A stretch of DNA of 32,000 bases from Methanosarcina siciliae T4/M (GTDB lineage Archaea; Halobacteriota; Methanosarcinia; Methanosarcinales; Methanosarcinaceae), in assembly GCF_000970085.1 (NCBI RefSeq), contig NZ_CP009506.1, positions 2,315,186 to 2,347,185 on the forward strand, given 5' to 3'. Below, piece after piece: positions 3,158 through 19,266 of the stretch; position 1 is the stretch's first letter, and the number at the start of each line of letters is the position of its first letter. The notes below the pieces were generated by a model. The model had not been told where the DNA came from. It ran no database searches and was given only the letters and a program-made list of their open reading frames with translations. Position numbers and translations under genes: made by a program.

Positions 3158-3176
3158 CTTTCCTTTTTTCCGGGCT

Positions 3177-3278
3177 GGTCAGGTGTTTAACCATTTATTT
3201 ACAAATGGTTGGTCAGGTGCTTAACCACTCACTTATAAACGGCTGGTCGGATGTTTATCTCCCTGCTCATATTGTGAT
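3177..3278 (+). repeat. Cluster A of ~34-bp tandem repeats (3 copies, third degenerate)
   Basis: The units are GGTCAGGTGTTTAACCATTTATTTACAAATGGTT, GGTCAGGTGCTTAACCACTCACTTATAAACGGCT and GGTCGGATGTTTATCTCCCTGCTCATATTGTGAT, starting at 3177, 3211 and 3245. This is the same family as cluster B at 5400-5533. Confidence 0.75.
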
Positions 3279-3377
3279 CAGTTTGCTTTCAAGAGCTAAA
3301 AAGTAGTATTCTTTAAAAGTAAATTCCCTCTTCGGGAATAAATTCTAATTTTCTCCGGATGGATTTTTATATATTGA

Positions 3378-3785: not shown

Positions 3786-3880
3786 AAGTTTGCAATATCG
3801 GTTTTTATGGTGAGCTTCGTCCGCTCAGGAGGGAGATGCTCTGTTAATATTTTTGTTCTCAGGAAGCTGGGGAAAAGAAG

Positions 3881-5362
3881 TTACAGCAGAAGCAGGAAGA
3901 TGGAAGCTGGTAATGTAACATATTTTCCGCTGAGATCAAATCTGTCTTTTGAAACAAGGATTCCTCTTTCAAATACAGTCAGGCCCCGATAATCGCTGCT
4001 GTTTATCCGGTTCTGGTATTTCAGTTCTATTCCGAGAAGAATGCTTCCCTTTTCTTTCAGGACAAAATCAACTTCTTTTTTGCCGCCGCCTGTTTTCAAA
4101 TAGAAGACGCGGTCATGAGGGGAGAAGACGTCGCTCGGATATTTTTCATATATGAAACGCAGCAAATGGGAATGAAAAACGGATTCTACCAGTTTGCTTC
4201 TGGTTTCGGGGCTGCTGAGATAGAGATTTGCAGATTCAAAGTAGTCAGTAAGGCCTGAAGCCCAGGCGTGCAGGGCATGGAAGATGAAAGGGTCCCGGAA
4301 GTAGATTTTTTTCGCTTTTTTGAAGTTTGCAGTCTTTTTTGGAAGGTCAAGGGGATAGAGCACGTTAAGGACAAAAGAGTCTTCAAGGGCAGTGACATAT
4401 TTCCGGACTGTTACGTGAGCTCCGATATCGGTTTCATCTGTGATACTCCTCCAGCTAACGGGTGTTGTAAGCTTTCCGGCTATGCTTCTGAGAGCCTGTT
4501 TTACCGGCATCTCCGGAATGTTCCAGCGGGCCAGGTCGCCTATGAGGGACTGTATATAGATTTCATAGGTGCTGCCATCGATTTTGTTTTTTGAGAAAAA
4601 CTCGTTAACAGCTCTCGGGATCCCTCCGGTGAGCAGATACTGGTCAAAGAGCCTATCAAGTTCGGGCTGGTAGAGGAGGAGCATGTTCAAGAGAGGGTCA
4701 GCTCTGCCTTCGGACAGGTTTGAAAGGATTTCCTTCCTTTTTTCGGCTTCAACGAGCCTGTTTGCTTCCATGAACTGCTTCAGGTCGGAGTTAAGGGTCT
4801 CCGCATATTCGGAAAACTTCATCGGAAAAAAGATCTTATCCAGAGTCCCTTCTCCTTCCCCCCTCCTCCCCGGAAGCCTTTCGATGCTGCTCTTTATATC
4901 GATCGAGTGAGACCCTGTCAGGACTACGGTTGTATTATTCAGGGCTCCGGTATCAACAAGGTACTTCAGTCCCTTTTCCCAGTCCCGGACCGAAGAAATT
5001 TCATCCAGGAAAATATATTTTCTCTCCAGCCGGAAAGCTGCCGCCCACTTAAGGTAGAGATCCAGACCCTCAAAAAGCTCTTTTTCATCAGCCACAAGGT
5101 CACAGGTAAAGTAAAAAACGCTCTGGAAATACTCGATTTTTTCAAGCAGCTCCCGAATTATGAGCTTGACCAGCGTAGTCTTTCCAACCTGCCTCGGCCC
5201 CCTCAAAGTGTAAATCCTGTCCCTGTCAAACTTCAGCTCCGAAAGAAGCCCCGGACTCCACTTCATGAGCGATTCATCCAGTTTTTTCAGTTTGGCATCA
5301 TCCCGGATAGCAGCAGGATTCCTCCACCAGGGGTTCTGAGCCGAGAGTTGCATCAAATCCAT
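3881..5362 (-). CDS. AAA-type ATPase with DUF4143-like C-terminal domain (COG1373-like)
   Basis: The 493-aa ORF starts NPWW..., has Walker A RGPRQVGKTTL and Walker B YIFLDEIS. The C-terminal part (EVDFVL ... GIELKYQ) resembles the restriction-endonuclease-like DUF4143 module of this family. Confidence 0.85.
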   Translation of the reverse strand: MDLMQLSAQNPWWRNPAAIRDDAKLKKLDESLMKWSPGLLSELKFDRDRIYTLRGPRQVGKTTLVKLIIRELLEKIEYFQSVFYFTCDLVADEKELFEGLDLYLKWAAAFRLERKYIFLDEISSVRDWEKGLKYLVDTGALNNTTVVLTGSHSIDIKSSIERLPGRRGEGEGTLDKIFFPMKFSEYAETLNSDLKQFMEANRLVEAEKRKEILSNLSEGRADPLLNMLLLYQPELDRLFDQYLLTGGIPRAVNEFFSKNKIDGSTYEIYIQSLIGDLARWNIPEMPVKQALRSIAGKLTTPVSWRSITDETDIGAHVTVRKYVTALEDSFVLNVLYPLDLPKKTANFKKAKKIYFRDPFIFHALHAWASGLTDYFESANLYLSSPETRSKLVESVFHSHLLRFIYEKYPSDVFSPHDRVFYLKTGGGKKEVDFVLKEKGSILLGIELKYQNRINSSDYRGLTVFERGILVSKDRFDLSGKYVTLPASIFLLLL

Positions 5363-5399
5363 ATGGTTTATTCTATGTCCTTTGTGGTTTATATAATTT

Positions 5400-5533
5400 G
5401 GTTAGATAATTAACCACTTATTTATATGTAGCTGGTTAGATGTTTAACCACATTATTATAAGCAACTGGTTAGGTACTTTCCCCAGGTTTATATATAACT
5501 GGTTAGATACTGATCTCTCTATATTCTAGAAGA
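5400..5533 (+). repeat. Cluster B of ~34-bp tandem repeats (4 copies) upstream of the ATPase gene start
   Basis: The units start at 5400, 5434, 5468 and 5501: GGTTAGATAATTAACCACTTATTTATATGTAGCT, GGTTAGATGTTTAACCACATTATTATAAGCAACT, GGTTAGGTACTTTCCCCAGGTTTATATATAACT and GGTTAGATACTGATCTCTCTATATTCTAGAAGA. Each unit has a GGTTA-N6-TAACC inverted half-site followed by a TATA-like box. Confidence 0.8.
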
Positions 5534-5758
5534 AGATTCCAAAAGAGAATAAACCAGCTTTCCAGAGCTGGAAATTAAATCTTTCCTTCTCAGGAAAAAA
5601 TTCTGTTTGCCGGCATTCCAACTCTTTTTTAATATATTTTTTCTGCCACCGGCCAGAAGAAGAAAGATCCCGGATCAAAATTTCCGCTCAAGTAACTATA
5701 AACTCTATAAACTCAACTATCAGCCTGTATACTCAAACCGCCGCTATTCTAACTCGAT

Positions 5759-6241
5759 TTATTGGACTTCTGCAATAATCACAACATAATTCTTCCCGTA
5801 TTTTTCGGCACAGGCCGGACAGGTGGTATACCACATATACCATTTCTTAATTTCAAGCCCCTGCCCTTTTGCATACCCTTCAAAGTCCGCACACCATTCC
5901 CCTGTTTTTTCAAAATCTCCCTCGTAGACTTTGCTCAAAAACTTCCCGCTCAGGGTCAGGTTTTCAGCTCCCTCGACCTCTCTATCAACAGCCAGATAGA
6001 GGTCCATATTGCTTTCTGATGTGTGGTCCGACAGGCAGAGCCAGTCAGGAATTTCAGCCCCTGCCCTGGCAACTTTTTCGTTCATCCTCATAACTACTTC
6101 CCCGAAGTTCAGGGGCATGTAATTCTGAGTGGTCACGGAATCTTTGATGAACTTTTTATTCTTCCATTCAAAGAGTTTGCCGTCCCAGGGGGCGGGGTCA
6201 AACGGAGGACAACATTCCGGAGTTTCGGTTTCGCTGGTCAT
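5759..6241 (-). CDS. Conserved hypothetical protein (acidic, C-terminal CPAC motif)
   Basis: The 160-aa ORF has no better competing frame. It begins with a CC pair (PECCPPFDP) and ends WYMWYTTCPACAEKYGKNYVV. No function can be assigned from sequence alone. Confidence 0.55.
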   Translation of the reverse strand: MTSETETPECCPPFDPAPWDGKLFEWKNKKFIKDSVTTQNYMPLNFGEVVMRMNEKVARAGAEIPDWLCLSDHTSESNMDLYLAVDREVEGAENLTLSGKFLSKVYEGDFEKTGEWCADFEGYAKGQGLEIKKWYMWYTTCPACAEKYGKNYVVIIAEVQ

Positions 6242-6455
6242 GACTATTCTCCCATTTAGAGAATTACTCCGGGAGTTATTTTAGGCTTTGGGTTCCGGTG
6301 AGTTTGGGGGTAAAATTAGTTTTAGAATCTGTCCGAAAAGTCAGTAATGCATGTTGAAAAGTTACAATGCGTCTATAATATCAAAGTATCTGCTACGGGT
6401 TTGCATATCAGAGGTTGTAAAAGTTACAGCAGGTAACTACTTTTCTGATAGGCTC

Positions 6456-6728
6456 TTAGCCCACCCTAAAAAATGAAGAGCCATCTTCTTTGTTTATGTC
6501 CCCAACGTACTCACGATATATTACGTACTTGCCATTTGCTTTTTTCATGCACCTTACCCCAAGTCCACTCTTCTTCAACATCGCTTTTCTCTTCCCGGCA
6601 TCGGATTTATCCAGTCCGAAATAACTGAGCTCATCGAGCATGTAGGTTTTACCATTAAATTTCCTAAAAGTTTTATGCATAGCGACCCCGAAGCTATTTA
6701 GTTTTGAATAGAGAGTAAAGGCTGTCAC
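6456..6728 (-). CDS. Hypothetical small basic protein (GTG start overlapping upstream stop)
   Basis: The 90-aa ORF has its GTG start overlapping the TGA of the upstream 82-aa ORF (GTGA). This suggests translational coupling. The protein is Lys-rich and I recognise no family. Confidence 0.4.
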   Translation of the reverse strand: MTAFTLYSKLNSFGVAMHKTFRKFNGKTYMLDELSYFGLDKSDAGKRKAMLKKSGLGVRCMKKANGKYVIYREYVGDINKEDGSSFFRVG

Positions 6729-6973
6729 TGACTTTCTTTAACCTGATATACAATCTCGCTTCCATCTTCCCCTGTTTTCCGAATACCCTCACTACTTATG
6801 ATATAATCATCAGTTTCAGAAATGTCAGAAGCGTGATCCTGTATCGCTCTAATTGCCTCACCAATTGTAACAGGTTCATCTGCATTATCCGGAATATGAA
6901 TCGGTTCATCTATTCCTTTTTTTGCGATTAATGCAAGTTTTTCCAGTGCTTCGATCAGAGTCATTTCTGTCAT
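6725..6973 (-). CDS. Hypothetical small acidic protein, first gene of a two-gene cassette
   Basis: The 82-aa ORF is acidic (many D/E). A GGAGG-like motif precedes its ATG (ggaggaataaaatccATG on the minus strand). It has a 4-bp overlap with the downstream ORF. Confidence 0.45.
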   Translation of the reverse strand: MTEMTLIEALEKLALIAKKGIDEPIHIPDNADEPVTIGEAIRAIQDHASDISETDDYIISSEGIRKTGEDGSEIVYQVKESQ

Positions 6974-7158
6974 GGATTTTATTCCTCCTTCCAGAAGTTC
7001 TTTTCTTATTCTGCCCTAATATAGTTTGGGTCTCTTCTTCTATGTCTTTTATCTTCACAATATCTTTTTTTCAGTCCAGGAAAATCCCCGGCAGCCTGCT
7101 TAGAAGATGAAAATAATTTCCGAAAACCGCTGTTAAACTGAAGTTTCAAAGAAACGTG

Positions 7159-9069
7159 ATTTTAACCTCACTTTTCTCTAAAAAACAGTATCAGCTGACC
7201 TTTTGCAAATTTTTTATTTGTAGATCCTAAGTTTTAAATTCACTTTAAAAAGTCTATTAGTATTGTTTATTTCAAAAATTTATTTATATAGGTAGATCAT
7301 AATTAATACTATGGTATTTTTAAGAAAGAAACTCGTCAATGGGAAACCTTACTGGTATATAGTAGAATCTGCCAGAGTTGATGGAAAGGTAAAAACCATT
7401 TTTCAGGTTTATCTGGGTAGCGCAGAAAAAATACTTGAGATGAAAAGGCAATGTGAATCATTGCCCTATGATAAACTTAGATCCTTTGATTACGGCAAGC
7501 TTGCCGCACTTCTTCATGTGAATGAAGAACTTGGATTCATTGACATAGTTAACAAGCATACTGACAAAAAATTAATAGATGGATTGAGTGTTGGAGAATA
7601 CCTCTTACTTGATGTAATCGGAAAAAGTCACGGCGTTTTAAGTGAAAACGGGATTGAAGAGTGGTTCAAAAAATCCCCTTTAGCTTTCATGTGGAAATTC
7701 CCGCACAAGTTAAATTGTCAGAATTTTTTGAACCAAATGAATTATGTCGACTTAGATACTATGAAAAAGATTGTAGACGATCTCTGCAGAGTTCTTGTAG
7801 GAAAGGGATTAACTCCATCAATAATGTTTGTGGATGAATCAAACTGGTTTACATATGCTAACAATTATGATGACGAGAGCGAACTGCTTCATAAAGGATA
7901 TAACAAAAAGCATAGGAAAGACAAAAATCAAATATGTGTTTCGCTAGCTGTAAACGAGGATAACATACCTTTTATTCATGAAACATATCCTGGAAATGTT
8001 CATGACTCTGAAGAATTTTCAGGCATAGTAGATAAAATCATAAACAGACTGACTGAATTAAATATCTGTTCTGAAGATCTTGTTCTTGTTTTCGATAAGG
8101 GTAACAACTCAAAAGATAACATTGAAAAGGTAACCTCAAAAATGAGTTTTGTAGGATCTGCAAAAACAAATCAAGCCGAGGAGCTTCTCGATGTTCCGCT
8201 TTCCAAATATGAGTGTTTATACAAGAATTCGAAAGGTAACAAAATTTTTGGATACAGAACAAAACACCAGTTTTACGGAGCAGAATATACAACCGTAATA
8301 ACCTACAACGAAGGAACTTACAAGCTTCAAAAGAGCACTTATGAAACAAACAAATCAAGAATAATTGATAGTTTGGAGGATCTCCAGAGAAGATTAGAAA
8401 GCAGTAAAGGAAAAGAAAGAAACAGGAGCAGCGTAGAACGTGAGGTTGCAGGAATTATTCTGAAAAAATGCAATAGCGTTATAAAATATGAAATAATTGA
8501 TGCTCTGGAAGGGAAGAATTTTCCTCAGTTAAAGTTCTGGATTGATGAAGAAAACGAAAAAAAGTGCGAAAAGACGTTTGGGAAGAACGTCCTATTTACG
8601 GATAAGCAAAAGTGGCAAACTAAAAAGATAGTGAAAACATATAACAGTAAGAATCTTGTTGAAGATGATTTTAAACTGTTGAATGATCACTTGCTTGTTC
8701 CTGTAGGACCAGTATATCATCACAAGGATGAAAACATTAGAGTTCATGTGTTTTTGGCTATGGCTGGCCTACTTTTCTACAGATACCTGGCATGGGAGAC
8801 CAAAATGTACGGTTTCTCTTTGAAAAAGCTCATTGAAAAACTGTCTGAGATCAAGATTGCGGTAGTTCAGGAAAAAGAGTCCAAAAAAAGCAAAATTATT
8901 GTGGAAGAAATGGACACAAAACAAGCATCGTTATTTTCTTTTCTAAACATGGAAAAATACCTGCCATATTAACAAAATCGTTATTGGCAGGATTATTCTT
9001 TTATTAGGCATACACAAACAAAGCCAGAGGATAACGGAAAATCACTCATCTTTGAAAGGTGAGTTAAAT
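7159..9069 (+). mobile_element. IS1634-family (IS4-related) insertion sequence; boundaries tentative
   Basis: A single transposase ORF is flanked by imperfect inverted termini. ATTTTAACCTCACTTTTC lies at 7159-7176. The reverse complement of 9054-9069 is ATTTAACTCACCTTTC. These match at 15 of 16 positions with 2 indels. I could not identify a target-site duplication. Confidence 0.5.
7311..8972 (+). CDS. IS1634-family DDE transposase
   Basis: The 553-aa ORF has the N-terminus MVFLRKKLVNGKPYWYIVESARVDGKVKTI typical of IS1634 transposases. Candidate DDE residues lie in MFVDESNW, LVFDKGNNS and NLVEDDFKLLN. Confidence 0.85.
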   Translation: MVFLRKKLVNGKPYWYIVESARVDGKVKTIFQVYLGSAEKILEMKRQCESLPYDKLRSFDYGKLAALLHVNEELGFIDIVNKHTDKKLIDGLSVGEYLLLDVIGKSHGVLSENGIEEWFKKSPLAFMWKFPHKLNCQNFLNQMNYVDLDTMKKIVDDLCRVLVGKGLTPSIMFVDESNWFTYANNYDDESELLHKGYNKKHRKDKNQICVSLAVNEDNIPFIHETYPGNVHDSEEFSGIVDKIINRLTELNICSEDLVLVFDKGNNSKDNIEKVTSKMSFVGSAKTNQAEELLDVPLSKYECLYKNSKGNKIFGYRTKHQFYGAEYTTVITYNEGTYKLQKSTYETNKSRIIDSLEDLQRRLESSKGKERNRSSVEREVAGIILKKCNSVIKYEIIDALEGKNFPQLKFWIDEENEKKCEKTFGKNVLFTDKQKWQTKKIVKTYNSKNLVEDDFKLLNDHLLVPVGPVYHHKDENIRVHVFLAMAGLLFYRYLAWETKMYGFSLKKLIEKLSEIKIAVVQEKESKKSKIIVEEMDTKQASLFSFLNMEKYLPY

Positions 9070-9261
9070 AACCGATTGCTGACCGTAAAAAAAGTTTTTA
9101 CAAAACTTTCTGTATGCTTTGCTCCGATTTCCAGCTTCCAGGACCAAGATAATAAGCTGCAAATCCCTAACAGCAAGCAGTACCCGATATTCTCCAACTT
9201 TCAAAGAATAAACTGGAGTGTTAGCAGGAGTTTTAAGCTTCCTGGAAAAATCAAACCCGCA

Positions 9262-10637
9262 GTTTTAATCCTTGTTTTGGTGGCTGTTGCTGTTTTAGCT
9301 TGACATACTTTCTCTAGAGGAAAAGTTGAGAGTATGTTTCAATCCTTGTTTTAGTGGCTGTTGCTGTTTTAGTACTGTCCATACTTCCTTTTATTAAAGA
9401 AATAAATAAGTTTCAATCCTTGTTTTAGTGGTTGTTGCTGTTTTAGTCCGGAAAACGTAACATTGGTCGAAGACGACCAAAATAGTTTCAATCCTTGTTT
9501 TAGTGGCTGTTGCTGTTTTAGTGTCGGAAGCCGTATCCAGGTTCCCTGGAAATGAAGCAGGTTTCAATCCTTGTTTTAGTGGCTGTTGCTGTTTTAGTGG
9601 TAAGCCTCAGCTTGACACGGGAAGAATTTTGAAGTTTCAATCCTTGTTTTAGTGGCTGTTGCTGTTTTAGCTGTCCAGCATGTAAGGGTTCAGGATCAAT
9701 CAGGCAATGTTTCAATCCTTGTTTTAGTGGCTGTTACCGTTTTTCCTGGAAGTAGGAATAGGATTGTATCGTAATACAAAGGGTTTCAATCCTTGTTTTA
9801 GTGGCTGTTACCGTTTTTCATGGAGATGAATTAATGAAAGATGCAGTCAATTTTATGTTTCAATCCTTGTTTTAGTGGCTGTTACCGTTTTTCTCTGTCT
9901 TATAGGTATAATGGATATTTTAGAACATAGTCGTTTCAATCCTTGTTTTAGTGGCTGTTACCGTTTTTCAAAAGGAGAGGAGAGGCAAAATGATTATAGA
10001 TTATTGGTTTCAATCCTTGTTTTAGTGGCTGTTACCGTTTTTCAATATAAAAGGAGTGAAAGAATGTCAGGGGAAGAATTTGTGGTTTCAATCCTTGTTT
10101 TAGTGGCTGTTACCGTTTTTCCAGAATGAAATTGTTGCTTGCCGTGTTTCTTATCAGTTTCAATCCTTGTTTTAGTGGCTGTTACCGTTTTTCAAAAAAT
10201 ACATAGAGATCAGGTTAGAGAAAGAGAATGTTTCAATCCTTGTTTTAGTGGCTGTTGCTGTTTTAGAAGGATACAATAGAGGTAGCCTTGAGTTTTATAG
10301 AAGTTTCAATCCTTGTTTTAGTGGCTGTTGCTGTTTTAGATAATGTTGGATAACATACAAACCTGCAAGATTGAAGAGAGTTTCAATCCTTGTTTTAGTG
10401 GCTGTTGCTGTTTTAGCGGAACATTCCACATTCCTGCCCCGTGGTTCAATGGGTTTCAATCCTTGTTTTAGTGGCTGTTGCTGTTTTAGCGTGAATCCGA
10501 AATCGTATTTGAAGAACAAATGCGAAGGTTTCAATCCTTGTTTTAGTGGCTGTTGCTGTTTTAGATGTCAAAGCTTATTTCTTCCCAAGAAGAAATGATC
10601 GTTTCAATCCTTGTTTTAGTGGCTGTTGCTGTTTTAG
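9262..10637 (-). CRISPR. CRISPR array 1: 19 repeats of 37 bp, 18 spacers of 35-41 bp
   Basis: The plus-strand repeat is GTTTCAATCCTTGTTTTAGTGGCTGTTGCTGTTTTAG. Repeats start at 9262 (degenerate: GTTTTAATCCTTGTTTTGGTGG...), 9336, 9410, 9485, 9561, 9634, 9709, 9783, 9857, 9933, 10007, 10085, 10157, 10230, 10303, 10380, 10453, 10528 and 10601. The seven repeats from 9709 to 10157 are a variant ending ...GTTACCGTTTTTC. The degenerate repeat at the left end and the conserved leader at the right end place transcription on the minus strand. The crRNA-sense repeat ends ...GGATTGAAAC. Confidence 0.97.
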
Positions 10638-10890
10638 AGGGTCGTTTTCCCTTATTTTCAGCAAATTATTAAGTAATCTCAAATCTTAAAACCAGTATCA
10701 AACAGCTTATTTTTTACTTTAACTGTCTAATCTTTGGAATTTACCTGTTTTTGTTTTGGTCAACAAAATTTGCTGGTCGACAAATAACTGGATAGTATAT
10801 AAGGAGCAGCAAGTTATAAACTTTTTCATTTTACACTGCCCGATATTGATATTAGTTTTTTGGTAGTGAACATACATGTACTTTGGAATG
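10638..10890 (-). promoter_or_regulatory. CRISPR leader of array 1 with candidate TATA box
   Basis: About 250 bp here are homologous to the sequence flanking array 2 (25478-25730). The shared start is AGGGTCGTTTTCCCTTATTT-CAGCAAATTATTAA. A shared GTATATAAGGA (TATATAA at 10796-10802) sits exactly 159 bp from the first repeat in both leaders. Confidence 0.7.
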
Positions 10891-10935
10891 AAATTCTTTA
10901 GGAACTTGGGGGTGAGCAGCAAGTATCAAATTTGA

Positions 10936-11013
10936 TTTTCAGCAAATTATTAAATAATTTCGAATATGAAAATCAAAATCAAACAAATAATATTTTATGT
11001 GACTGTATGATAG
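10936..11013 (-). repeat. Orphan partial leader copy (third copy of the repeat-proximal leader segment) with no repeat attached
   Basis: TTTTCAGCAAATTATTAAATAATTTCGAATATGAAAATCAAAATCAAACAAATAATATTTTATG aligns to the first ~75 bp of both leaders. It is preceded by unrelated sequence rather than a CRISPR repeat. It abuts the stop codon of the 818-aa gene. Confidence 0.6.
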
Positions 11014-11024
11014 TTGGAATTCTA

Positions 11025-13481
11025 TTATAATTTTGATGATATTTTAGCGGCGTACTTTGCAGTTTTCTCATTATTGGATAATTGGGATAATATAATTGCA
11101 CGTGAATCTGCTGAAAGCTTTTCAAAATTCATTTCAATAGATTGTACAATGTACTTAGTATTCGGAGAATCGTCAAGACACTTATACAAAATGTTTTTTA
11201 GTTTATCGGATGTGTTGTCAAAATTTTTAATAATAGCTCTTGCAACAAATTTTTCACATTTTTCATCATTTGAAAGTTTTAATAAACTATATTCAAAGAC
11301 ATCAGTAGGAATATTTTGACATTTATCTGCAATTGCCTTTGCGATATGGGATCTATATTCTTCTTTTTCTAACATATTAAAGAGTACACACTTTAAGTGA
11401 TCAGGAAGAACTCTATAATTTTCAATGATAGCACGAGCTATGTCCTTGTCAAAGTTCTCTGTTTTGTAAATTTCAATTATTAAATTCTTTGCCTCATCTG
11501 AAAGATTATTGTAATTATCTGTCAAGGCTCGTGCCAGGTGGCCTGCAACTTTATTATCATGCGACATATCAAACAGTAATGTCTTCAATTCTTCGGGAAC
11601 GACATAAAAATAATCCGTTATAGCTCTTGCAATATCTTTTTTCAGTCCCTCTTCCATATATAAATCATGTAGTAGGGTCTGTGCTTCTTTTGGGAGATTT
11701 GAGTAATTATATACAAGAGTCCGAACTACAGATCTTTTTGCACTATCACTTTTTGCCAATGTGAAAAGTAAACCCTGAATTTCATTTGGAAGATTGCTGT
11801 AATTATCTGCTATAACCCTCGAAATATAACCTGCAGCATTTTCGTCTTCAGCTAATTTCCATAAAAACTTAGAATAGATTTCTGGAAAAATAGTTGTGGA
11901 ACATTCTTTTGCTGTAAGTAGATATTTTAAGGATTGAAGGTATGTTGGATGTGAAAATCTTATTCGGTCATTAAAAATCTCGATTTTATCGCCTCTAAAC
12001 CATTCAATAACCGAAGAGGAACTCAAAGCATCTTTGATTCCAAATTCTTGAACCATTTCAATATATTTTTCTTTAACGAACTCCAGTTTAAAGGAACCCG
12101 ATGTAAAAGGAAACGACAAAAATAAGATTTTATCTTCTGAAAGAGTGCTAATTTCATCCGCAAAACTTACAGCTGCATCTCTTGACTTTTCAATTATCTT
12201 TTCATGCAAAATTGCAGAGTCTGTGATATTGCGACTTGTAACGCAAAAATCTCTAATCCGGAGGGGAGTTGGCAGACTGATAGGTAATTTTAGTTGCTCC
12301 AAGATGTAAGTTTTAAGTTCTACATCAGATAGCCATATGCATCTATTTTTTTTCGCCCACATGAGAAGAAGCTTTTCTCTTTCATTATAATCTTGAAAGT
12401 TACTTTTCGCATTGAGCTTTTGCACAACCTTTCCGAAATCAATAGAGTAGTTGTGAGAATTGAACTCTTGAAAAACCTCACTTCTAGAAGTTATTATTAA
12501 ATATATGTTCTCAAATTCACGAATTTTATCTATTATTGCTTTAATCTCTTTTTCCAGTAATTCTATTTTTTCGTACTTATTTTCTCCAAAGGGATCTTCA
12601 AAATAAAATATCTGTTTTTCCTTTAGATCAGAGTCGATTTTTTCAAACCCTTTTTTCTTTTCATGTAATGAGTTCTCTGCCCTTTTCCATACAGGCTGAT
12701 ACTCTTTTAAGTAATATTCCCATAAAAGCCTGACAGCAGTAAACGTTTTGCCAGATTCGGGATTTCCAGTAATAACGACAACTTTATTGTTTTCTAGGAT
12801 TTTCTTTATTTCATCATATTCTTTGGGAATAACGAAAAGTCTGTCTATTCCCTCATATATTGAGCCTTTAGGAATCCCGAGTGTATTTAAGAAGTTAAGA
12901 CTTTTTGCCCATCTTTTGAAGCTCACGGTGTCAACATAATATAAATATTTCTTTTTATATTCTTGTGGATTAAAGATTTCCTGGTCACAGTAGTCCAATT
13001 TTTGGTATAAATTCTCTGTGAATAAAATAAAAGTAGTCCTAGTTGATTCGTTATGAGTGGCTTTATAAAATTTGCTGTATTCACCAATAATATTATTTTT
13101 TAAAAAATAAATGGTAGAGTCTTCGTCAATAAAGGAGTCACTATTAAAATCTGTATTTTCTTGATAACTTACACTGCCCAGAGCGATTTCAAAAGGAAAA
13201 TCTTGTTGTAGTTCTATAATTTCAGAAATAGAAATAAGCAATTTCTGAAAATCTTCCGAAACTATTAACCAATCATCGCGCCCCGTACTTATTCCAATAA
13301 AAGATTTCCTCTTTTTAAGATCTTCTACTTTATTTTTTAGAAGTTGTCTTAATTTATGTCTTATATGGCTGGGCTCTATATTTTGATCATGTAGATCATA
13401 TGTATCTACGATTCCTTTAGCACGATTTTCGAATCCTAATATGTCAATGTAACAAAGATAATACTCTTTTGTATCCACCAT
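11025..13481 (-). CDS. Tripartite CRISPR-linked protein: palm/cyclase-like N-domain (tentative), P-loop NTPase (STAND-like), C-terminal HEAT/ARM-like repeats
   Basis: The 818-aa ORF has Walker A VVVITGNPESGKT (res 234-246) and Walker B IFYFEDPFG (res 291-299), followed by LIITSR. Residues ~548-818 form about 8.5 tandem ~32-aa two-helix repeats with the pattern (A/V)ARAIxxNYxxLPxExxxLL. The N-terminal ~190 aa carry YLCYIDILGFEN, STGRDDWLIVSE and FEIALGSVSY, in the order and spacing of GGDEF/Cas10-palm/class III cyclase motifs. The gene lies 69 bp downstream of cmr3 on the same strand. Confidence 0.85.
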   Translation of the reverse strand: MVDTKEYYLCYIDILGFENRAKGIVDTYDLHDQNIEPSHIRHKLRQLLKNKVEDLKKRKSFIGISTGRDDWLIVSEDFQKLLISISEIIELQQDFPFEIALGSVSYQENTDFNSDSFIDEDSTIYFLKNNIIGEYSKFYKATHNESTRTTFILFTENLYQKLDYCDQEIFNPQEYKKKYLYYVDTVSFKRWAKSLNFLNTLGIPKGSIYEGIDRLFVIPKEYDEIKKILENNKVVVITGNPESGKTFTAVRLLWEYYLKEYQPVWKRAENSLHEKKKGFEKIDSDLKEKQIFYFEDPFGENKYEKIELLEKEIKAIIDKIREFENIYLIITSRSEVFQEFNSHNYSIDFGKVVQKLNAKSNFQDYNEREKLLLMWAKKNRCIWLSDVELKTYILEQLKLPISLPTPLRIRDFCVTSRNITDSAILHEKIIEKSRDAAVSFADEISTLSEDKILFLSFPFTSGSFKLEFVKEKYIEMVQEFGIKDALSSSSVIEWFRGDKIEIFNDRIRFSHPTYLQSLKYLLTAKECSTTIFPEIYSKFLWKLAEDENAAGYISRVIADNYSNLPNEIQGLLFTLAKSDSAKRSVVRTLVYNYSNLPKEAQTLLHDLYMEEGLKKDIARAITDYFYVVPEELKTLLFDMSHDNKVAGHLARALTDNYNNLSDEAKNLIIEIYKTENFDKDIARAIIENYRVLPDHLKCVLFNMLEKEEYRSHIAKAIADKCQNIPTDVFEYSLLKLSNDEKCEKFVARAIIKNFDNTSDKLKNILYKCLDDSPNTKYIVQSIEMNFEKLSADSRAIILSQLSNNEKTAKYAAKISSKL

Positions 13482-13550
13482 TTTAGAGCCTCTTTAAAAA
13501 TGGGATATTAATTCAGAAACAATTTCATATAATTTTTAAAATTGAATGTG

Positions 13551-14555
13551 TCACTCTAAATTCGCAAATTTAAGCAGCCCAAAGGAACCAAGTTCAATCT
13601 TGTTAATTTTTTCTTCAAAGCAAGTACCCGGAACAAACGCAACCCCATTTGAACTCAAATACCTTCCAAAACCCTTTTTCAGATCGTACATTCTTCCTAC
13701 AAGTGGCTCAAGCTCACCTCTATATTTTATAGATTTCTCAGAGTCCAGTAACAGATGGCCGAATATAGGAACTCCTTTATTACCATTATCTTTGTTGAAA
13801 ATCAAACGATCTTCAGCGCTTTCAAGAAACCAGTCAAAAACAGGGGTACGCTCAATCTTTTTCACTTCAGTTATTCTCAATTCCAATTTCCCGAATCCAT
13901 ATCTAAGATCTCCCCCAACATGGATTTCATTTAAAGCTTCAAACAACTTTATTGAGGTATTCTCATACCCAAGTTCTATCTCTTCAAATTTTTCGCTGTT
14001 TTTTACAGAACATTTTTCAGAAATGTCTTCTTTCACAAAAAGATACCCTTTCCAATAAACCTGCATAACTCCACAATTTATTTTATCCAAAGTTTTGCAA
14101 TTTACCTTGTTCAAGATATATTCGGTCTCATGCAAACTTTCATCCATTGCCGAGTTCCTGTTTCCTACTGTTGCTGTGGAAACAAAAGAGCTAATGAAAG
14201 TGGATTCAAATTCTCTTTCGGAACACTTGCCATATTTTAAGCCTTCTTGCGTAAAGATTGGATTAAATGTATGTTGAATGTTCCCATTTTCTTGGTCTGT
14301 AATCTCTGGAAAGAAATACGTATTTTTTACATATCTTTCAATACATTTCCCAACCTCTTCGTAAACTTTGGGATTGTATTTTATTCCTTCGTCAATTAAT
14401 TTTCTTGCCGCGTTTGCGGTTAGAGCGCCCCACATTGTTTTACCAGGGATATACCTCCGGGCTTGCTGAATAAATCCTATTTTTCGACTGCCGATGAAGA
14501 TAGGAGATTTTGCTTTAAATCTTATCTCAAAGCATGTATAACCCATAGTTCTCAC
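13551..14555 (-). CDS. cmr3: Type III RAMP subunit Cmr3 (Cas5 group)
   Basis: The 334-aa ORF is the last effector gene and overlaps the cmr5 stop by 4 bp. It has a RAMP-like N-terminus (FEIRFKAKSPIFIGS...IPGKTMWGALTANAARKL) and a C-terminal glycine loop (HVGGDLRYGFGKLEL). Its position matches cmr3 in the III-C gene order. Confidence 0.65.
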   Translation of the reverse strand: MRTMGYTCFEIRFKAKSPIFIGSRKIGFIQQARRYIPGKTMWGALTANAARKLIDEGIKYNPKVYEEVGKCIERYVKNTYFFPEITDQENGNIQHTFNPIFTQEGLKYGKCSEREFESTFISSFVSTATVGNRNSAMDESLHETEYILNKVNCKTLDKINCGVMQVYWKGYLFVKEDISEKCSVKNSEKFEEIELGYENTSIKLFEALNEIHVGGDLRYGFGKLELRITEVKKIERTPVFDWFLESAEDRLIFNKDNGNKGVPIFGHLLLDSEKSIKYRGELEPLVGRMYDLKKGFGRYLSSNGVAFVPGTCFEEKINKIELGSFGLLKFANLE

Positions 14556-14998
14556 TCTCTCTTTTCCTCATCAGCATTTTCTTCCTCTTCCGAATTCCCT
14601 CTTTCTCCTGCATTTAGAGATTTTGCACGATAACGTGCATAAATAAAGGTTTGTTCAAGAACTTGCTTTGCGAAAAGCAATTTTCTTATATCAGTTGAAA
14701 GATTGATGATTTTTCCTTCTTCACTTCCCCCAACGCCGGATTCAATTTCTATATTACACTCTTCCAGAATCTTCACTACATCGATTCTGTTATTTCGATT
14801 CCCGTTTTTGTTTGAAGCTTTTAAATATAACCATAGAGCGTACACCCCATTTGATGACAGAACTCCTAATGATTTATTTATGAAAGATTCTATCTCTTTA
14901 GGTTTCATCCCTTCCTTTGAACCTTCAGGTTTCATTAATTTATCAACAATATCGAAACCGCTTTTTGCAGCGATAAAATCAATATTATTTTGAGCCAT
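14552..14998 (-). CDS. cmr5: Type III small subunit Cmr5 (Cas11 group)
   Basis: A ~149-aa protein is predicted from the internal ATG (MAQNNIDFIAAKSG...). The longer ORF to 15094 would overlap cmr4 extensively. The sequence looks all-helical (LGVLSSNGVYALWLYLKA) with an acidic tail. It sits between cmr4 and cmr3. Confidence 0.6.
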   Translation of the reverse strand: MAQNNIDFIAAKSGFDIVDKLMKPEGSKEGMKPKEIESFINKSLGVLSSNGVYALWLYLKASNKNGNRNNRIDVVKILEECNIEIESGVGGSEEGKIINLSTDIRKLLFAKQVLEQTFIYARYRAKSLNAGERGNSEEEENADEEKRE

Positions 14999-15983
14999 TT
15001 TCTCCCACTTCCTCAATCGTAACTCTTCCGAAACCTCTTGTGACCATCCCACCGATACCAAGAGTCTCAAAGTAGCAGAACCCACCTTTAACAATTGATT
15101 TTACATCGAGAAGCGAGATCAGGGTGTTACTTTTCCCTTCCTTTGAGCTGTTCTCACTCTTTTTGCCATATCCAAAATAATCAGGATCGTTTATACCCAG
15201 TTCAAACCAGAGTATAGTGCTCCTCGGGATGGCTTCACTGGTAAAAAGGGCACCATCCTTTCCTGCACCAGTTACTGGATCAATAGATACTGAAGTTCTT
15301 ACCTCAAGGTTAGAATTTATAATCTGGGAGATTAATGAATCAGGTACGATTACAATTCTGCTGGAGAGCAATTTATTTTTCTTTGAACCGAGGGATGCAA
15401 GATGATCAAATGATGGCAATTCTTTTTCATCTTCAATTGGAAGATTGAGCCACCCAAGATTCAGGCTTGATTCCCCTGAGAACTCAGAGCCAACCACTAT
15501 AAAGCTATTCGAAGGCTTGTTTTTTGTCTCTAATTGAATTCCAAAATCTTCTAAAATCATGGGAGAAGTTATCCATGCAGGCCCAATCCTTGTACTAACT
15601 GGGAATAAAAGGATGTGAGCGTCGCTAAAGTAAACAAGCCCCTGTGAGCTTCCTCTATCATCATTCTTTGAGAAACCAAAGGATCTACAGATAATGCATT
15701 TTCCACAGTGACCTTTTTTATTATTTCCAGGTGATACATCATTGTCTTGTCCTGCACAAGTAATTTTTACCTTATATTCTTGATCTTCTTTCTGATCCTC
15801 TATTTCTTTATATGTAGCATAAGTCCTTGCAGTCCCTGCAATGCTGCTTCCGGGAATTTTTGGAAGATTGGTTGCTGGCTCTCTCACTATAGTATTATCT
15901 ACACGGCCTATCTGGTAGCCCCCGGTGCCGATGTGTATCGGATCAAGCGTAAACATAAAGTATTTACTCATTTTTATCACCAT
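14985..15983 (-). CDS. cmr4: Type III backbone RAMP subunit Cmr4 (Cas7 group)
   Basis: The N-terminus FTLDPIHIGTGGYQIGRVDNTIVREPATNLPKIPGSSIAGTARTY carries the Cmr4/Csm3 signature, including the candidate catalytic Asp. Also present are HCGKCIICRSFG, VYFSDAHILLFPV and a C-terminal GIGGMVTRGFG loop. The start could be the second Met (MSKYF, 15971). Confidence 0.85.
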   Translation of the reverse strand: MVIKMSKYFMFTLDPIHIGTGGYQIGRVDNTIVREPATNLPKIPGSSIAGTARTYATYKEIEDQKEDQEYKVKITCAGQDNDVSPGNNKKGHCGKCIICRSFGFSKNDDRGSSQGLVYFSDAHILLFPVSTRIGPAWITSPMILEDFGIQLETKNKPSNSFIVVGSEFSGESSLNLGWLNLPIEDEKELPSFDHLASLGSKKNKLLSSRIVIVPDSLISQIINSNLEVRTSVSIDPVTGAGKDGALFTSEAIPRSTILWFELGINDPDYFGYGKKSENSSKEGKSNTLISLLDVKSIVKGGFCYFETLGIGGMVTRGFGRVTIEEVGENGSK

Positions 15984-18900
15984 TTGGCTTCAATTTTAGT
16001 ATAGAGTTGTAAAACTCCAGAATATCAAAAATCGTTTTGTCGAGACAAACCTTCTTAAGCAGCTCTTTTCCCTCTTTATCTAAAGAATTCCACCACTTAC
16101 GAGTTCCAACATTTATCAAAATGTTTTCAATTTGTTTTTCGAGAGTTTCATAGTATTCAGTTTTATTTTTCTCTTTACAGTCTTTCCAATCCATATGGAG
16201 TTTCACAAGGTTTTCTTGTATGTTTTTCAGTTGTGAAGTTGTCATGTATTGTGTATTGAACAAGTTCCATACCTTTTCAAAGACTGACGAGAACTCTTCA
16301 AGAAGGTAAGGCTTTGAACCTTTAAGCGAACTTTTATCAATTCTCTTATGATCACTATCATAACTAATTTCCAATCTTCGGGCCGTGGTATCTAAAAATT
16401 CGAAATCGAAATAATTGGGATAAAGCTTTACACAATCTCCCTGGTCTAAATCGGACCCGTTGATTAGAAATTCCTTTTCATTCTCTATAAATGTTTTAAA
16501 AAAGCTCTTTTTTTTCTGTGCTTTATCTTCAGAGGTCTTAAGAAGGAAGTTAAAATAATATTTTGCCTGCTCATCTAAGCATTTATTCAATTGAATTTCT
16601 TTCTTCCTAATTCCCTGGTTATCAACTTCCAGATTGTCAACTTCCAGATTAACTATAGGAGAGTCTTTTGAAAAATTACTTACTGAAAAATCCATAAATT
16701 CAACGTCTTCAAAACCGTTAAGCATTCTTCTAGATGCATTTACAGCGGCATAAAGAGCTGTTTTTGAATCAAAAAAGACAACACCTAAGTTTAGAGGTAG
16801 TCTCCCTGCAACATTTCCCATTTCTAATGAATATTTTGCGTGAATTTCAGATATTATTTTTGGAACACTGTTTGCAGGCACTATAAATTGAAACGTAACT
16901 GGAGATAACAAAACTTCAAGGAAAGGATTGTAATAACTCCCATAAAAAACATCATTGATTATATATCTTTCAAATTTATCTGGTTTTGTTCCTTCAAGTT
17001 CGATTTCAATTTCATCCCCAATATATTTTTTTAACTTGTCTGTCGTATCATCAAACAAGCCCTTTAATTCAGGTATGTCTAAATTTTGGGTAGTGATGAA
17101 TTTTTCTCCATCGAAATACATTACAATGCTCAATTTCTTGAATTTTGCTACGTATGTGCCACGTAATAGACCTTTTGTATCTTTTAAAGTGATATTTAGG
17201 CGCTTAAATCGAATCTTCGATGAGGTTTCAATATCTTTGTAATCATGGGCAGTGGGTATGTAAATGTAGTAATTTTCATTATTCTTTAAAAAGTCACTGG
17301 TTTCCTTCCAGAAGGTTTCAGTAGATGTCCAAATCCGCCTCAATCTTGAAGGAGATGGATGTTTCCTGAAAATAGTTAGTAACAGACGTTCTGTCGCTTT
17401 TTCACAACTGGAACCATCCTTCCAATTGTTTATTTTAGCATCCCAAAGTGGATTTCTATCTACCACTAAATTTTCATAGAACTGGTGGGAATTCATTTCA
17501 CGTTGGTAAGACTCTCCAGCAATCTCTTCTAAACATTTTGGCTTTCCTTTATTTATTTTCAGTTCTTGCCTCAAGCAGTCACTCAACGAGTTCCAATTAT
17601 CGTATGATTCTAAGTTTTGAGTTGTCTGGGAAAAAACAGTATTTAGGAGTTCTCCATTAAGCCACTTACTTAGATTGAACCTTCCTGTTACGATTGCTAC
17701 TTTTCCATTTGAATCTGCAATTTCATTAATCCAAATTGTGGGGTACTTTTTATCGGAGAAATTATTAGGTAACCAATCTTTTATTCGGCTTTCTCCCCTA
17801 TTCAAACAACACTTACAAACTTCCTGATGTTCACATTTCGGATGAACTTTACATACAGGGCAAATATCAACCTGATATTCTTTATTGCCTCCCCCAGCTA
17901 TACATTCATGATATCTTGTACAGGTATTTTTGCAAAAACTACGTTTTATTCTTCCATTATTAATACATTGATCATTACTCTTGCAAACATCACAAGAACT
18001 TTTTGAAACCTGGGCATCTTGAACATCGATGGTCAAAACTTGATCCCATTTTTCTTTCCATTCAGGGACTTCTTCGTGAAGCTGAAAATTACCTCTTGCT
18101 TCGGTTAAAAGATTTGTAAGTAAGACTAGAGAACGAGAAGATTCACTTATGGATATATATGGTATAACTTCCCCATCAGACTTTTTATTTACTCTACACA
18201 GTATTTCTTCTTTTATCAATTTCTCTAGAGAATCCCGGCCTATATCAGGACCAACAAAATAGATACCACTTTCATCTCTGTAGATTTCATTTCCAATTGG
18301 AAATTCTTCTTCTATATACGTTTTTATTTCTTGATCAATATCCTCAGTTAGTTTTCTGTATGCTACAATATCAACCAACTTGTGTGCCTTTTCTACCAGA
18401 CCAAGTTTATCGTATTGCACCCCTATAATAACCCACTTTAAATCTTTTAGATTAGTCCATTCCCCATTATGTATCATATTTGCAATGGCTGATTTGTAAA
18501 GACTTGCAACAGAATAAGAATGATCCCATAGAGTAACATCATTTCCACTTCGCCTGGTATCTCCAAGGGCTTTTAGGAATTCTTTTTTCAACAGTTCAAT
18601 TATTTTTTTTCTCTGCATCACTATATTATCTGGTTTTTCAGAAATTTCTTCTAAGTAGGTAGACAATTCATTGCAAAGATTTTCTCTGCTCGGCTTTAAA
18701 TCTTCAATGTTAATTTTCTTTTCATGCCCAAAAGAAGTAGATATTTTTGTACACTCAATTGATTGCTTTCCAATATTTTGAAGAATACCTTTGTCTACTC
18801 CAGAATCAAGACGATCAATATTTTTTAATAACTCGATAAGTCTTTTATCAGTTTTTTTTCCATGATGTTCTGAAATTATTTCTTTAGGCCCCGCCAATTT

Positions 18901-19266
18901 TTCGGAGAATATAGGTTTAATTGTGTTAGTCCTAATATTTTTATTTATAATGTCCTTGAATACTTCTTTAGAAATTATTTCTTTAAAACTTGAACTCAAA
19001 AATTCACTATAATCAAATTTATCGTTGTTTTCGCTAAAAATATTATAATGCTTAAATTTGCAATAGATACTGTAATTTTTTTTTGAATCGAAGCATTCTT
19101 TACTTTGTTCAACTATGAACTCTTTACTTAATTTCCCTAAATCGTGCAACAGAGAGTAAATTTCAGACAGAAGAATGAAATCGGCATTTTCTTTAATGCG
19201 CTCTTGTCCATTCATTAATACGCCCCTGTTCTCTTCAAGAACATTCAAATTCCGGTCTTTGTTCAC
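15964..19266 (-). CDS. cas10: Cas10 (Cmr2-like) large subunit: HD motif present, canonical GGDD cyclase motif absent
   Basis: The 1100-aa ORF has an HD region LLHDLGK (res 39-45), with EHHGK and RLDSGVDK downstream. TLWDHSYSVASLY is present, as is a Cys-rich Zn cluster at res 425-487. HPSPSRLRRIW precedes the second palm domain. Where GGDD is expected the sequence reads LLSPVTFQFIVPANS (res 786-800), followed by the conserved RLPLNLGVVFFDSKTALYAAVNASRRML. No GGDD, GGDE or SGDD occurs anywhere in the ORF. Confidence 0.9.
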   Translation of the reverse strand: MNKDRNLNVLEENRGVLMNGQERIKENADFILLSEIYSLLHDLGKLSKEFIVEQSKECFDSKKNYSIYCKFKHYNIFSENNDKFDYSEFLSSSFKEIISKEVFKDIINKNIRTNTIKPIFSEKLAGPKEIISEHHGKKTDKRLIELLKNIDRLDSGVDKGILQNIGKQSIECTKISTSFGHEKKINIEDLKPSRENLCNELSTYLEEISEKPDNIVMQRKKIIELLKKEFLKALGDTRRSGNDVTLWDHSYSVASLYKSAIANMIHNGEWTNLKDLKWVIIGVQYDKLGLVEKAHKLVDIVAYRKLTEDIDQEIKTYIEEEFPIGNEIYRDESGIYFVGPDIGRDSLEKLIKEEILCRVNKKSDGEVIPYISISESSRSLVLLTNLLTEARGNFQLHEEVPEWKEKWDQVLTIDVQDAQVSKSSCDVCKSNDQCINNGRIKRSFCKNTCTRYHECIAGGGNKEYQVDICPVCKVHPKCEHQEVCKCCLNRGESRIKDWLPNNFSDKKYPTIWINEIADSNGKVAIVTGRFNLSKWLNGELLNTVFSQTTQNLESYDNWNSLSDCLRQELKINKGKPKCLEEIAGESYQREMNSHQFYENLVVDRNPLWDAKINNWKDGSSCEKATERLLLTIFRKHPSPSRLRRIWTSTETFWKETSDFLKNNENYYIYIPTAHDYKDIETSSKIRFKRLNITLKDTKGLLRGTYVAKFKKLSIVMYFDGEKFITTQNLDIPELKGLFDDTTDKLKKYIGDEIEIELEGTKPDKFERYIINDVFYGSYYNPFLEVLLSPVTFQFIVPANSVPKIISEIHAKYSLEMGNVAGRLPLNLGVVFFDSKTALYAAVNASRRMLNGFEDVEFMDFSVSNFSKDSPIVNLEVDNLEVDNQGIRKKEIQLNKCLDEQAKYYFNFLLKTSEDKAQKKKSFFKTFIENEKEFLINGSDLDQGDCVKLYPNYFDFEFLDTTARRLEISYDSDHKRIDKSSLKGSKPYLLEEFSSVFEKVWNLFNTQYMTTSQLKNIQENLVKLHMDWKDCKEKNKTEYYETLEKQIENILINVGTRKWWNSLDKEGKELLKKVCLDKTIFDILEFYNSILKLKPNGDKNE

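Follow-up and report, generated by a model that had tools for sequence, protein, structure and literature searches.

A window of 32,000 nt from Methanosarcina siciliae T4/M (GCF_000970085.1, NZ_CP009506.1, positions 2,315,186 to 2,347,185) holds a type III-C CRISPR-cas locus whose string of interference genes is followed, on the same strand, by a gene for an 818-aa STAND NTPase, MSSIT_1865. We consider it probable that MSSIT_1865 is an autonomous immune sensor of the Avs/NLR-like kind, in which an nSTAND3 switch controls a new cyclase-fold effector, and that it is a fixed passenger 3' of III-C operons in Methanosarcina. What is new is an effector-domain family on an Avs/NLR-like protein, together with its lineage-specific association with CRISPR. 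The product of the open reading frame (ORF) is 100% identical to the NCBI protein MSSIT_1865, and a word-index search recovered 23 full-length or partial relatives. A preliminary description of this DNA had reported the 818-aa gene, a 69-bp gap separating it from the preceding RAMP gene and the array 1 leader on its other side; all of these were seen again at the same coordinates (Table 1), with the gene on the minus strand.

MSSIT_1865 comprises an N-terminal domain of predicted cyclase fold, an nSTAND3 NTPase and a series of 32-aa helical repeats, the three-part STAND/NLR-like layout that the preliminary description had recognised. Residues 216-371 score 88.9 bits with the nSTAND3 model (PF20720; cut-off 27.2, E 3.6e-25). 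The catalytic motifs of this NTPase are intact: G244, K245 and T246 of Walker A, E295 and D296 of Walker B, and T331 and S332 of sensor-1 are invariant in 16 homologues of 28-89% identity, and R333 is kept in at least 90% of them. A BLOSUM autocorrelation over the C-terminal 270 residues gives a single sharp peak at a lag of 32, from eight units in register of the form ...VARAIxxNYxxLPxE..LLF.L, in agreement with the roughly 8.5 repeats counted earlier (eight clear units, residues 548-805). This region is all-helical in a single-sequence AlphaFold2 (AF2) model of the full protein, and one homologue (P0018) carries precomputed Pfam HEAT matches. The same model reached a pLDDT of 43 over residues 1-535 and was not used there.

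The N-terminal domain, residues 1-215, forms a family that existing models do not cover. No Pfam, NCBIfam or PADLOC model matched it even at E 10, and the Pfam models for GGDEF, Guanylate_cyc (PF00211), mCpol and Cas10 were all silent at that threshold. Searches with its sequence and profile against PDB sequences found no cyclase and no credible solved structure; the profile matches that did appear (a designed repeat protein and a marginal Tip-alpha) were judged spurious. Since a word-index search with the domain alone misses even the identical database protein, a limit of the index, exhaustive HMMER searches with residues 1-215 were used instead. These yielded 194 representative clusters (50% identity level) at E<=1e-3, of which 102 reached E<=1e-10. 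In nearly all cluster members the domain lies at the extreme N-terminus. An nSTAND3 NTPase stands behind it in 113/119 proteins of at least 450 aa, and among those of 650 aa or more, 88 of 103 have repeats of the MSSIT_1865 type.

Residue conservation, computed across 159 N-domains, picks out D69 (98%), G16 (94%), D13 (92%, the remainder mostly gaps), E98 (92%), K128 (92%), Y135 (89%) and R41 (81%). D13 and D69 occur together in 149 of the 152 domains that cover both positions, and they lie 56 residues apart, with a further 29 residues from D69 to E98. This near-universal pair argues for metal-dependent chemistry. The N-terminal motifs and spacings of the preliminary description were all found as given, and its choice of D13 and D69-D70 as the key acids holds for D13 and D69, which are near-invariant, and not for position 70, where the family shows D (57%), S (25%) and N (11%). 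Its equation of the GRDD string with the GGDD/GGDEF turn fails because G67 is present in only 65% of members, position 68 is variable (S, R, T and others) and D70 is not conserved; the family pattern is G67, any residue, D69, then D, S or N, followed by W.

An AF2 model of residues 1-215 from a 34-sequence alignment (mean pLDDT 91.1, pTM 0.87) predicts a palm-type nucleotide-cyclase fold resembling that of class III enzymes. Its elements run β1 (4-14), an α1 region (17-57), β2 (63-66), β3 (70-75), α2 (78-91), β4 (97-107), helices at 115-143, β5 (151-154), a hairpin at 171-183 and a final helix; D13 closes β1 and D69 sits in the β2-β3 turn. Foldseek comparison with the PDB returned 59 matches at E<=1e-3, and the top 50 are all catalytic domains of class III adenylyl, guanylyl or uridylyl cyclases (E 6e-5 to 8e-4, probability 0.99-1.0, TM score 0.38-0.50, about 200 aligned columns, 8-15% identity). 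Among the matches listed are rhodopsin-guanylyl cyclase 5oyh, the mycobacterial Rv1264 and Rv1625c, CyaC 1wc1, soluble guanylate cyclase, the Pycsar cUMP synthase 7r65, uridylate cyclase 8jsz and 5o5k, which we take to be a bacterial adenylyl cyclase. An unrelated fold, the outcome that the preliminary description had set against itself, did not emerge. The resemblance to class III cyclases (PF00211, including the PycC cCMP and cUMP synthases of Pycsar) extends to strand order, to an Asp that ends β1 within D-I-x-G-F and to a second Asp in the β2-β3 hairpin.

That description had named a palm with Cas10 and GGDEF kinship, and here only the palm-type cyclase fold was sustained. Cas10, GGDEF and mCpol domains share the same broad palm (RRM-like) superfold, and the hairpin of MSSIT_1865 does read G-R-D-D; unlike them, the N-domain matches none of their models, varies at positions 68 and 70 across its family and finds no Cas10, GGDEF or mCpol structure among its top 50 PDB matches. 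In a library of viral structure predictions, too, palm proteins gave the best matches (a cyclase-type 'response regulator', COG4252, GGDEF proteins and reverse transcriptases), with GGDEF proteins appearing there only at E 8e-3 to 0.2. Two other folds were considered and set aside. A PD-(D/E)xK or Toprim nuclease might present a D...D...E pattern, but the order of elements and the helix between the strands of D69 and E98 do not fit, and the fold search points to cyclases; a Cas2-like ferredoxin fold is at odds with Foldseek alignments that span about 200 columns of cyclase domains, beyond the core.

Among the closest functional precedents is Avs5, a proven antiviral STAND of SIR2-nSTAND3-TPR architecture. 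MSSIT_1865 shares with it the PF20720 NTPase, the layout of N-terminal effector, nucleotide-binding oligomerisation (NOD) module and helical repeats in a single polypeptide, and presumably ligand-induced oligomerisation. It differs in having a cyclase-fold rather than a SIR2 head, 32-aa HEAT-like repeats rather than TPR or Sel1 repeats, and a family that is mainly archaeal or anaerobic-bacterial; moreover, defence by Avs5 is proven, and a defence role for the MSSIT_1865 family is predicted. By analogy with Avs proteins, the eight-repeat solenoid would bind a trigger, most likely a virus or plasmid protein. Binding would lift autoinhibition and allow the nSTAND3 module to bind ATP and, as STAND biology suggests, to oligomerise. 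The oligomer would then cluster the N-domains and so assemble a putative two-metal active site on D13 and D69, alongside the other conserved polar residues E98, K128 and R41. Because class III cyclases act only as dimers and form their active sites at the dimer interface, STAND oligomerisation would be a natural on-switch for the head. More speculatively, the clustered domains might convert nucleoside triphosphates (NTPs) into a cyclic or modified nucleotide and pyrophosphate, acting either through NTP depletion and growth arrest or through a second messenger for a receptor encoded elsewhere.

A different account, which we regard as unlikely and which nevertheless survives best among the alternatives, makes MSSIT_1865 a functional accessory of the III-C system: its head would signal in trans for a Csx11 that lacks GGDD, or the protein would act downstream of the Csx11 complex, and the signal would possibly be read by the Csa3-like regulator. 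Recognition of a target by the CRISPR complex would in this way be tied to signalling or to an abortive response. The gene order on the minus strand (reverse transcriptase, Cas6b, Cmr1-like RAMP, RAMP, Csx11, Cmr4, small subunit, RAMP, STAND gene, array 1) puts the gene physically inside the III-C unit, as had been noted earlier, and this position recurs. In 7/7 loci examined at 58% STAND identity or more, up to 100%, the STAND gene is the last of the same RT-Cas6b-RAMP-RAMP-Csx11-RAMP-small-RAMP string and starts 69-160 nt after the last RAMP gene on the same strand. These loci are the window, M. barkeri 3, M. siciliae C2J, a metagenome-assembled genome labelled Methanobacterium and three metagenomic contigs; the 89%-identical P0002 was left out. 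A Shine-Dalgarno-like AAGAGG lies 8-9 nt 5' of the STAND start codon and is kept across six aligned orthologous spacers. The G+C content of the STAND gene (0.31-0.33) matches that of the III-C genes (0.31-0.35 for the two together, 0.31-0.39 with Cas6b included), most flanking genes lying at 0.41-0.53. Csx11 has HD motifs and, in a lookup of the motif string, no GGDD or GGDEF, as the preliminary description had said of this Cas10. The regulator that might read a signal is encoded both in the window and in the M. lacustris locus, where a 34%-identical STAND homologue directly precedes another RAMP/Cas6b cluster; this homologue stands between a 73-repeat array and genes for a 677-aa protein, a 349-aa protein, a RAMP and Cas6b, with cas1, cas2 and csa3 nearby. 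Counting M. lacustris, the STAND gene is CRISPR-embedded in eight Methanosarcina-type loci.

Its persistence there contrasts with the turnover of its neighbours. In M. siciliae C2J, Csx11 is only 23%, Cmr1 31% and Cmr4 40% identical to the window, while the STAND protein is retained at 61-79%, Cas6b at 92% and the reverse transcriptase at 89%. The C2J interference module (2451-9840 of that locus) thus differs sharply from its counterpart at 13551-21417 of the window, in the same species and between conserved flanks, which looks like replacement by recombination. In another of the loci (L003) the relation is inverted, with cas proteins 76-96% identical to those of the window and the STAND protein 52-66% identical across all its domains. 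From these identities it follows that the STAND gene persists while the adjacent module is exchanged, and that it evolves faster than the cas genes inherited with it.

The wider distribution speaks against a functional accessory. A scan of GTDB species genomes found 27 loci with distant homologues, in Methanophagales, Methanobacterium, Altiarchaeales, Hydrothermarchaeota, Bathyarchaeia, Argoarchaeum, Chloroflexota, Sumerlaeota, Zixibacteria, Bacteroidota, Eubacteriales and others; 22 have usable flanks and, with three metagenomic loci, make 25. None of the 25 carries cas genes or a CRISPR array within reach of its flanks, and the function of the family therefore cannot depend on CRISPR. (k-mer 'CRISPR-like' flags in L010, L012, L019, L020 and L022 proved to lie inside the repeat-coding 3' part of the STAND genes themselves.) From the other side, a metagenome scan with a Csx11 alignment gave 80 III-C loci at 21-51% Csx11 identity, most with Cmr1, Cmr4, small-subunit and RAMP homologues. 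Hidden Markov models (HMMs) of the N-domain, NTPase and repeats found no STAND protein in any of the 80, including the 42 with at least 3.5 kb downstream of Csx11, whereas all six positive-control loci were detected at E<1e-57. The CRISPR link is real and lineage-restricted, tight in Methanosarcina and absent from the rest of the family and of III-C. Even the Methanosarcina cases may be largely non-independent: because these loci share RT-Cas6b flanks, most of the seven may stem from one ancestral insertion.

The protein itself gives further reasons for doubt. Domain-model searches of MSSIT_1865 turned up neither CARF nor SAVED nor any other domain known to sense type III signals; its head resembles class III cyclases, not the Cas10 palm; and with sensor-like repeats and a switch NTPase of its own, it needs no external activator. 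It is because the CRISPR link is confined to one lineage that we rank an autonomous sensor above a III-C accessory. Of the two options in the preliminary description, a trans-acting signal generator and an independent recruited sensor, the second fits better, and the distribution disfavours the first. We likewise see only a slim chance that an NLR-like receptor and a CRISPR effector are wired together in one Methanosarcina operon, such that the head makes a messenger that the GGDD-less Csx11 cannot, or the Csx11 complex switches the STAND protein on, with the Csa3-like CARF protein or another receptor reading the signal. Set beside the earlier expectation that homologues would gather near CRISPR-cas or defence genes, the outcome is divided: close homologues are CRISPR-linked, the 25 distant loci show no cas genes, and the 42 other III-C loci lack the STAND gene.

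Several observations weigh against an autonomous cyclase-fold sensor. The strict retention of the STAND gene at the operon end in seven loci, despite Csx11 identities down to 23%, exceeds a loose defence-island association and could reflect real CRISPR coupling. Near the distant homologues, defence-gene enrichment appears modest and housekeeping neighbours are many: among the 102 nearest neighbours in 22 loci, no family is common to all, and the commonest (raw counts) are ParA-like ATPases (3), N6 methylases (3), Eco57I (2), integrases (2) and PIN proteins (2), with a DRT-like reverse transcriptase, a GajB-like helicase, a type IIG and a type IV restriction enzyme once each. The three metagenomic neighbourhoods are, respectively, DpnII/caspase-TPR, AAA_14/HsdR and metabolic. 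No conserved partner gene, receptor or effector, lies beside the homologues to take up a messenger, should one be made. As for the head, its fold resembles that of cyclases to a moderate degree (TM about 0.5, 10-15% identity), and at the level of sequence profiles there is no significant similarity, either in Pfam at E<=10 (residues 1-209) or with hhalign. Against an adenylyl cyclase profile (six mammalian domains plus a consensus, which alone retrieves real cyclases at E 1e-72), the hhalign alignment was confined to LiYiDILGFe opposite vlFADIeGFT, 19 columns at 4% probability; this stretch does hold D13 opposite the first metal-binding Asp of adenylyl cyclases. By comparison of motifs, helices 121-143 show no conserved Asn or Arg that would answer to the transition-state pair of class III (N-x-x-x-R helix); the residues conserved there are K128, Y135 and Y139. 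The α1 region is also expanded to about 40 residues, and the dimerisation arm is apparently replaced by helices. By sequence, then, the head is not a canonical cyclase. Because the Asn/Arg pair is not recognisably conserved, its chemistry may differ from that of class III, or it may only bind nucleotide, and the missing pair together with the missing partner gene argue against a textbook pathway with a cyclic nucleotide monophosphate (cNMP) messenger.

Taken further, these features would make the N-domain catalytically dead or a mere nucleotide binder, serving as an oligomerisation, regulatory or adaptor module while the output comes from an added nuclease or from ATP-dependent sequestration of a target. 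We think this improbable, although it would account for a conserved polar set (D13, R41, D69, E98, K128, Y135) without a recognisable class III Asn/Arg pair and for the lack of significant profile similarity to active cyclases, and catalytically inactive cNMP-cyclase domains are described in conflict systems (Kaur et al., PMC7159879). One relative, the metagenomic P0068 (1020 aa), has an Mrr_cat restriction-endonuclease domain ahead of its cyclase-fold domain and nSTAND3, a combination similar to those of restriction endonucleases and cNMP cyclases in the same paper. P0068, however, is the only protein seen with an extra effector, and its cyclase-fold domain still keeps D13, D69, E98 and K128. 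That 149/152 members, from archaea and many bacterial phyla, keep both Asp at the canonical palm positions would be difficult to account for if the domain did no metal-dependent chemistry, and the N-terminal placement in nearly all proteins is the usual position of a STAND effector.

Least probable of all is a non-immune signalling protein that answers a cellular cue with a cAMP-like signal and whose CRISPR placement is incidental. Cyclase-STAND-repeat architectures do exist in housekeeping signalling, in mycobacterial adenylyl cyclase-STAND-TPR regulators of the Rv0386 type, and many neighbours of the distant homologues are housekeeping genes, but the patchy distribution over very distant archaea and bacteria, the faster divergence of the STAND protein than of adjacent cas genes in L003, the truncated and frameshifted copies in the family, the restriction-modification, integrase, PIN and DRT-like genes adjoining it in several loci, and an NTPase shared with the proven defence protein Avs5 together indicate a conflict system.

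Other close precedents are known. cNMP-cyclase domains serve as signal or effector modules of NTPase-centred conflict systems (Kaur, Burroughs, Iyer and Aravind 2020, PMC7159879; 2021, PMC8195603), in which, as here, a cyclase-type domain is fused to or associated with a STAND or AAA+ switch, sometimes with a restriction endonuclease. Those cyclases, unlike the MSSIT_1865 head, are recognisable as such and belong mostly to vWA-MoxR/VMAP and iSTAND systems of multicellular bacteria; as far as the accessible portions of the two papers extend, they make no mention of the divergent N-domain family, of its fusion to nSTAND3 or of a CRISPR linkage. Pycsar differs in having an adjacent effector gene. 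STAND NTPases linked to minimal type I-E loci (Shmakov et al. 2018, bioRxiv 10.1101/270033) are also helical-repeat proteins held stably inside the CRISPR-cas locus of one lineage; unlike MSSIT_1865, they accompany I-E systems without Cas1, Cas2 or Cas3 rather than an apparently complete III-C system with adaptation genes, belong to another STAND clade, have TPR repeats and are not described with a cyclase-fold head. No mention of the N-domain family as a type III accessory was found in Shah et al. 2018 or in the III-C description of Vestergaard et al. 2014. Literature searches found no experimental data for the MSSIT_1865 family.

If our favoured account of an autonomous sensor is right, prokaryotic NLR-like proteins would gain a Pfam-less effector head of at least 194 clusters, spread over methanogens, anaerobic methane-oxidising archaea, Altiarchaeales, Chloroflexota and other groups and predicted to be a divergent two-Asp nucleotide cyclase. 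It would also offer a route into archaeal STAND immunity, which is almost unexplored experimentally, in a genus, Methanosarcina, that is genetically tractable. Among the type III subtypes, III-C is the least understood, and its Cas10, Csx11, is presumed to be without cyclase activity. A cyclase-fold NLR-like gene kept at the operon end through replacement of the interference module would be a concrete and testable candidate for the way in which III-C amplifies or signals. Were the coupling real, type III-C would have handed its signalling to a separate protein, and innate and adaptive immunity would be directly linked in archaea; were the CRISPR link positional only, the result would still extend, modestly, the known range of STAND effector domains.

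Table 1. Features of the MSSIT_1865 gene and its locus, in window coordinates.
Feature	Coordinates	Strand	Evidence or remark
Whole STAND gene, 818 aa, MSSIT_1865	11025-13481	-	ATG-to-stop ORF; database match 100%; domain matches
N-terminal domain, residues 1-215	12837-13481	-	predicted class III nucleotidyl-cyclase-like palm fold
D13 codon, end of predicted β1, motif YIDILGF	13443-13445	-	putative first metal-binding Asp; invariant in alignments A1, A2, A3
D69 codon, predicted β2-β3 hairpin turn (G-x-D-[DSN]-W)	13275-13277	-	putative second metal-binding Asp
NOD module, residues 216-535	11877-12836	-	nSTAND3 P-loop NTPase plus helical/winged-helix-like regions
Walker A GNPESGKT, residues 239-246	12744-12767	-	
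Walker B IFYFEDPFG, residues 291-299	12585-12611	-	
Sensor-1 IITSR, residues 329-333	12483-12497	-	
Eight 32-residue helix-turn-helix repeats (HEAT/PBS-lyase-like), residues 548-805	11067-11840	-	putative sensor
Intergenic spacer, last RAMP gene to STAND gene, 69 nt	13482-13550	-	A/T-rich stretch; AAGAGG
Cas5/Cmr3-like RAMP, final RAMP gene of III-C string	13551-14555	-	
Small subunit candidate, 180 aa	14552-15094	-	
Cmr4	14985-15983	-	E 5.9e-38
Csx11/Cas10 of subtype III-C	15964-19266	-	TIGR02682, E 2e-137
RAMP (second)	19263-20447	-	
Cmr1-like RAMP	20434-21417	-	E 1.3e-20
Type III-C interference genes as a block	13551-21417	-	
Cas6b	21439-22182	-	
Group-II-intron-like reverse transcriptase, head of gene string	22305-23519	-	
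CRISPR array 1, 19 repeats of 37 nt	9262-10637	-	
Array 1 leader, 387 nt, directly 3' of STAND stop codon	10638-11024	-	
CRISPR array 2, 25 repeats	23659-25477	-	
Cas1	26045-27094	+	
Cas2	27149-27454	+	
Csa3-like regulator, CARF-type Rossmann plus helix-turn-helix	27572-28342	+	

Array 2, Cas1, Cas2 and the Csa3-like regulator lie on the opposite side of the III-C operon from array 1. The G+C content of cas1-cas2-csa3 is about 0.46 against 0.31-0.39 for the III-C, Cas6b and STAND half, which suggests separate origins of the two halves. A scan for sigma-70 promoters and intrinsic terminators was uninformative, the host being an archaeon. The stand-alone reverse transcriptase adjoins Cas6b and array 2 and scores 293 bits with TIGR04416, slightly below the cut-off of 300; it fits 'RT-CRISPR clade 1' of Toro et al. 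2017 (PMC5541045), a clade confined to Methanosarcinaceae.

The array repeats read ...ATTGAAAC on the minus strand. Arrays 1 and 2 each contain two repeat variants, distinguished by their last 15 nt (plus strand), ...CTGTTGCTGTTTTAG with 33 copies and ...CTGTTACCGTTTTTC with nine. Seven repeats of the minor variant stand together midway along array 1 (9709-10193), and the two repeats of array 2 farthest from its leader (23659 and 23733) are of the same variant; this arrangement suggests either recombination between the arrays or two types of CRISPR RNA 3' handle. The two leaders are homologous (82% identity over 205 nt) and share a 63-nt element, present twice in the array 1 leader (10654-10716 and 10935-10997) and once in that of array 2 (25494-25556); the second copy in the array 1 leader begins 28 nt past the STAND stop codon. 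A DDE transposase gene (7311-8972) separates array 1 from a Bact_hydrolase gene, which in strain C2J comes immediately after the STAND gene, with no array there; array 1 and the transposase therefore look like an insertion or difference specific to T4/M.

In M. lacustris, the cluster directly 3' of the STAND homologue (L002, 12879-17706) consists of the 677-aa and 349-aa proteins, which have no family match, a 270-aa Csx7-like RAMP and Cas6b, and may be an undescribed minimal RAMP effector module. Among the III-C loci without the STAND gene, the large ORFs downstream of Csx11 are varied, several being on its strand and some lying 2-4 kb beyond it; one is an FtsK. Same-strand examples, in L065, L066, L070, L075, L081, L084 and L115, comprise a Type ISP restriction enzyme, DUF1156 and DUF499 proteins, a DNA methylase, a DEAD helicase and a Cas3-like HD/helicase; given this assortment of defence-type ORFs, the region 3' of III-C operons often holds unrelated defence genes.

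Elsewhere in the window, tandem repeat pairs with 34-nt spacing (TGGTCAGGTG..TTAACCA...) occur at 3175-3257 and 5398-5480, on both sides of an AAA_14/DUF4143 ATPase gene (3881-5362), and may mark where a small mobile cassette ends or serve as binding sites for a regulator. A TPR-protein gene (1823-3157) carries three tandem 45-nt purine-rich repeats at its 3' end (2807-3111; AT skew 0.31), which encode a Glu/Lys/Gly-rich tail.

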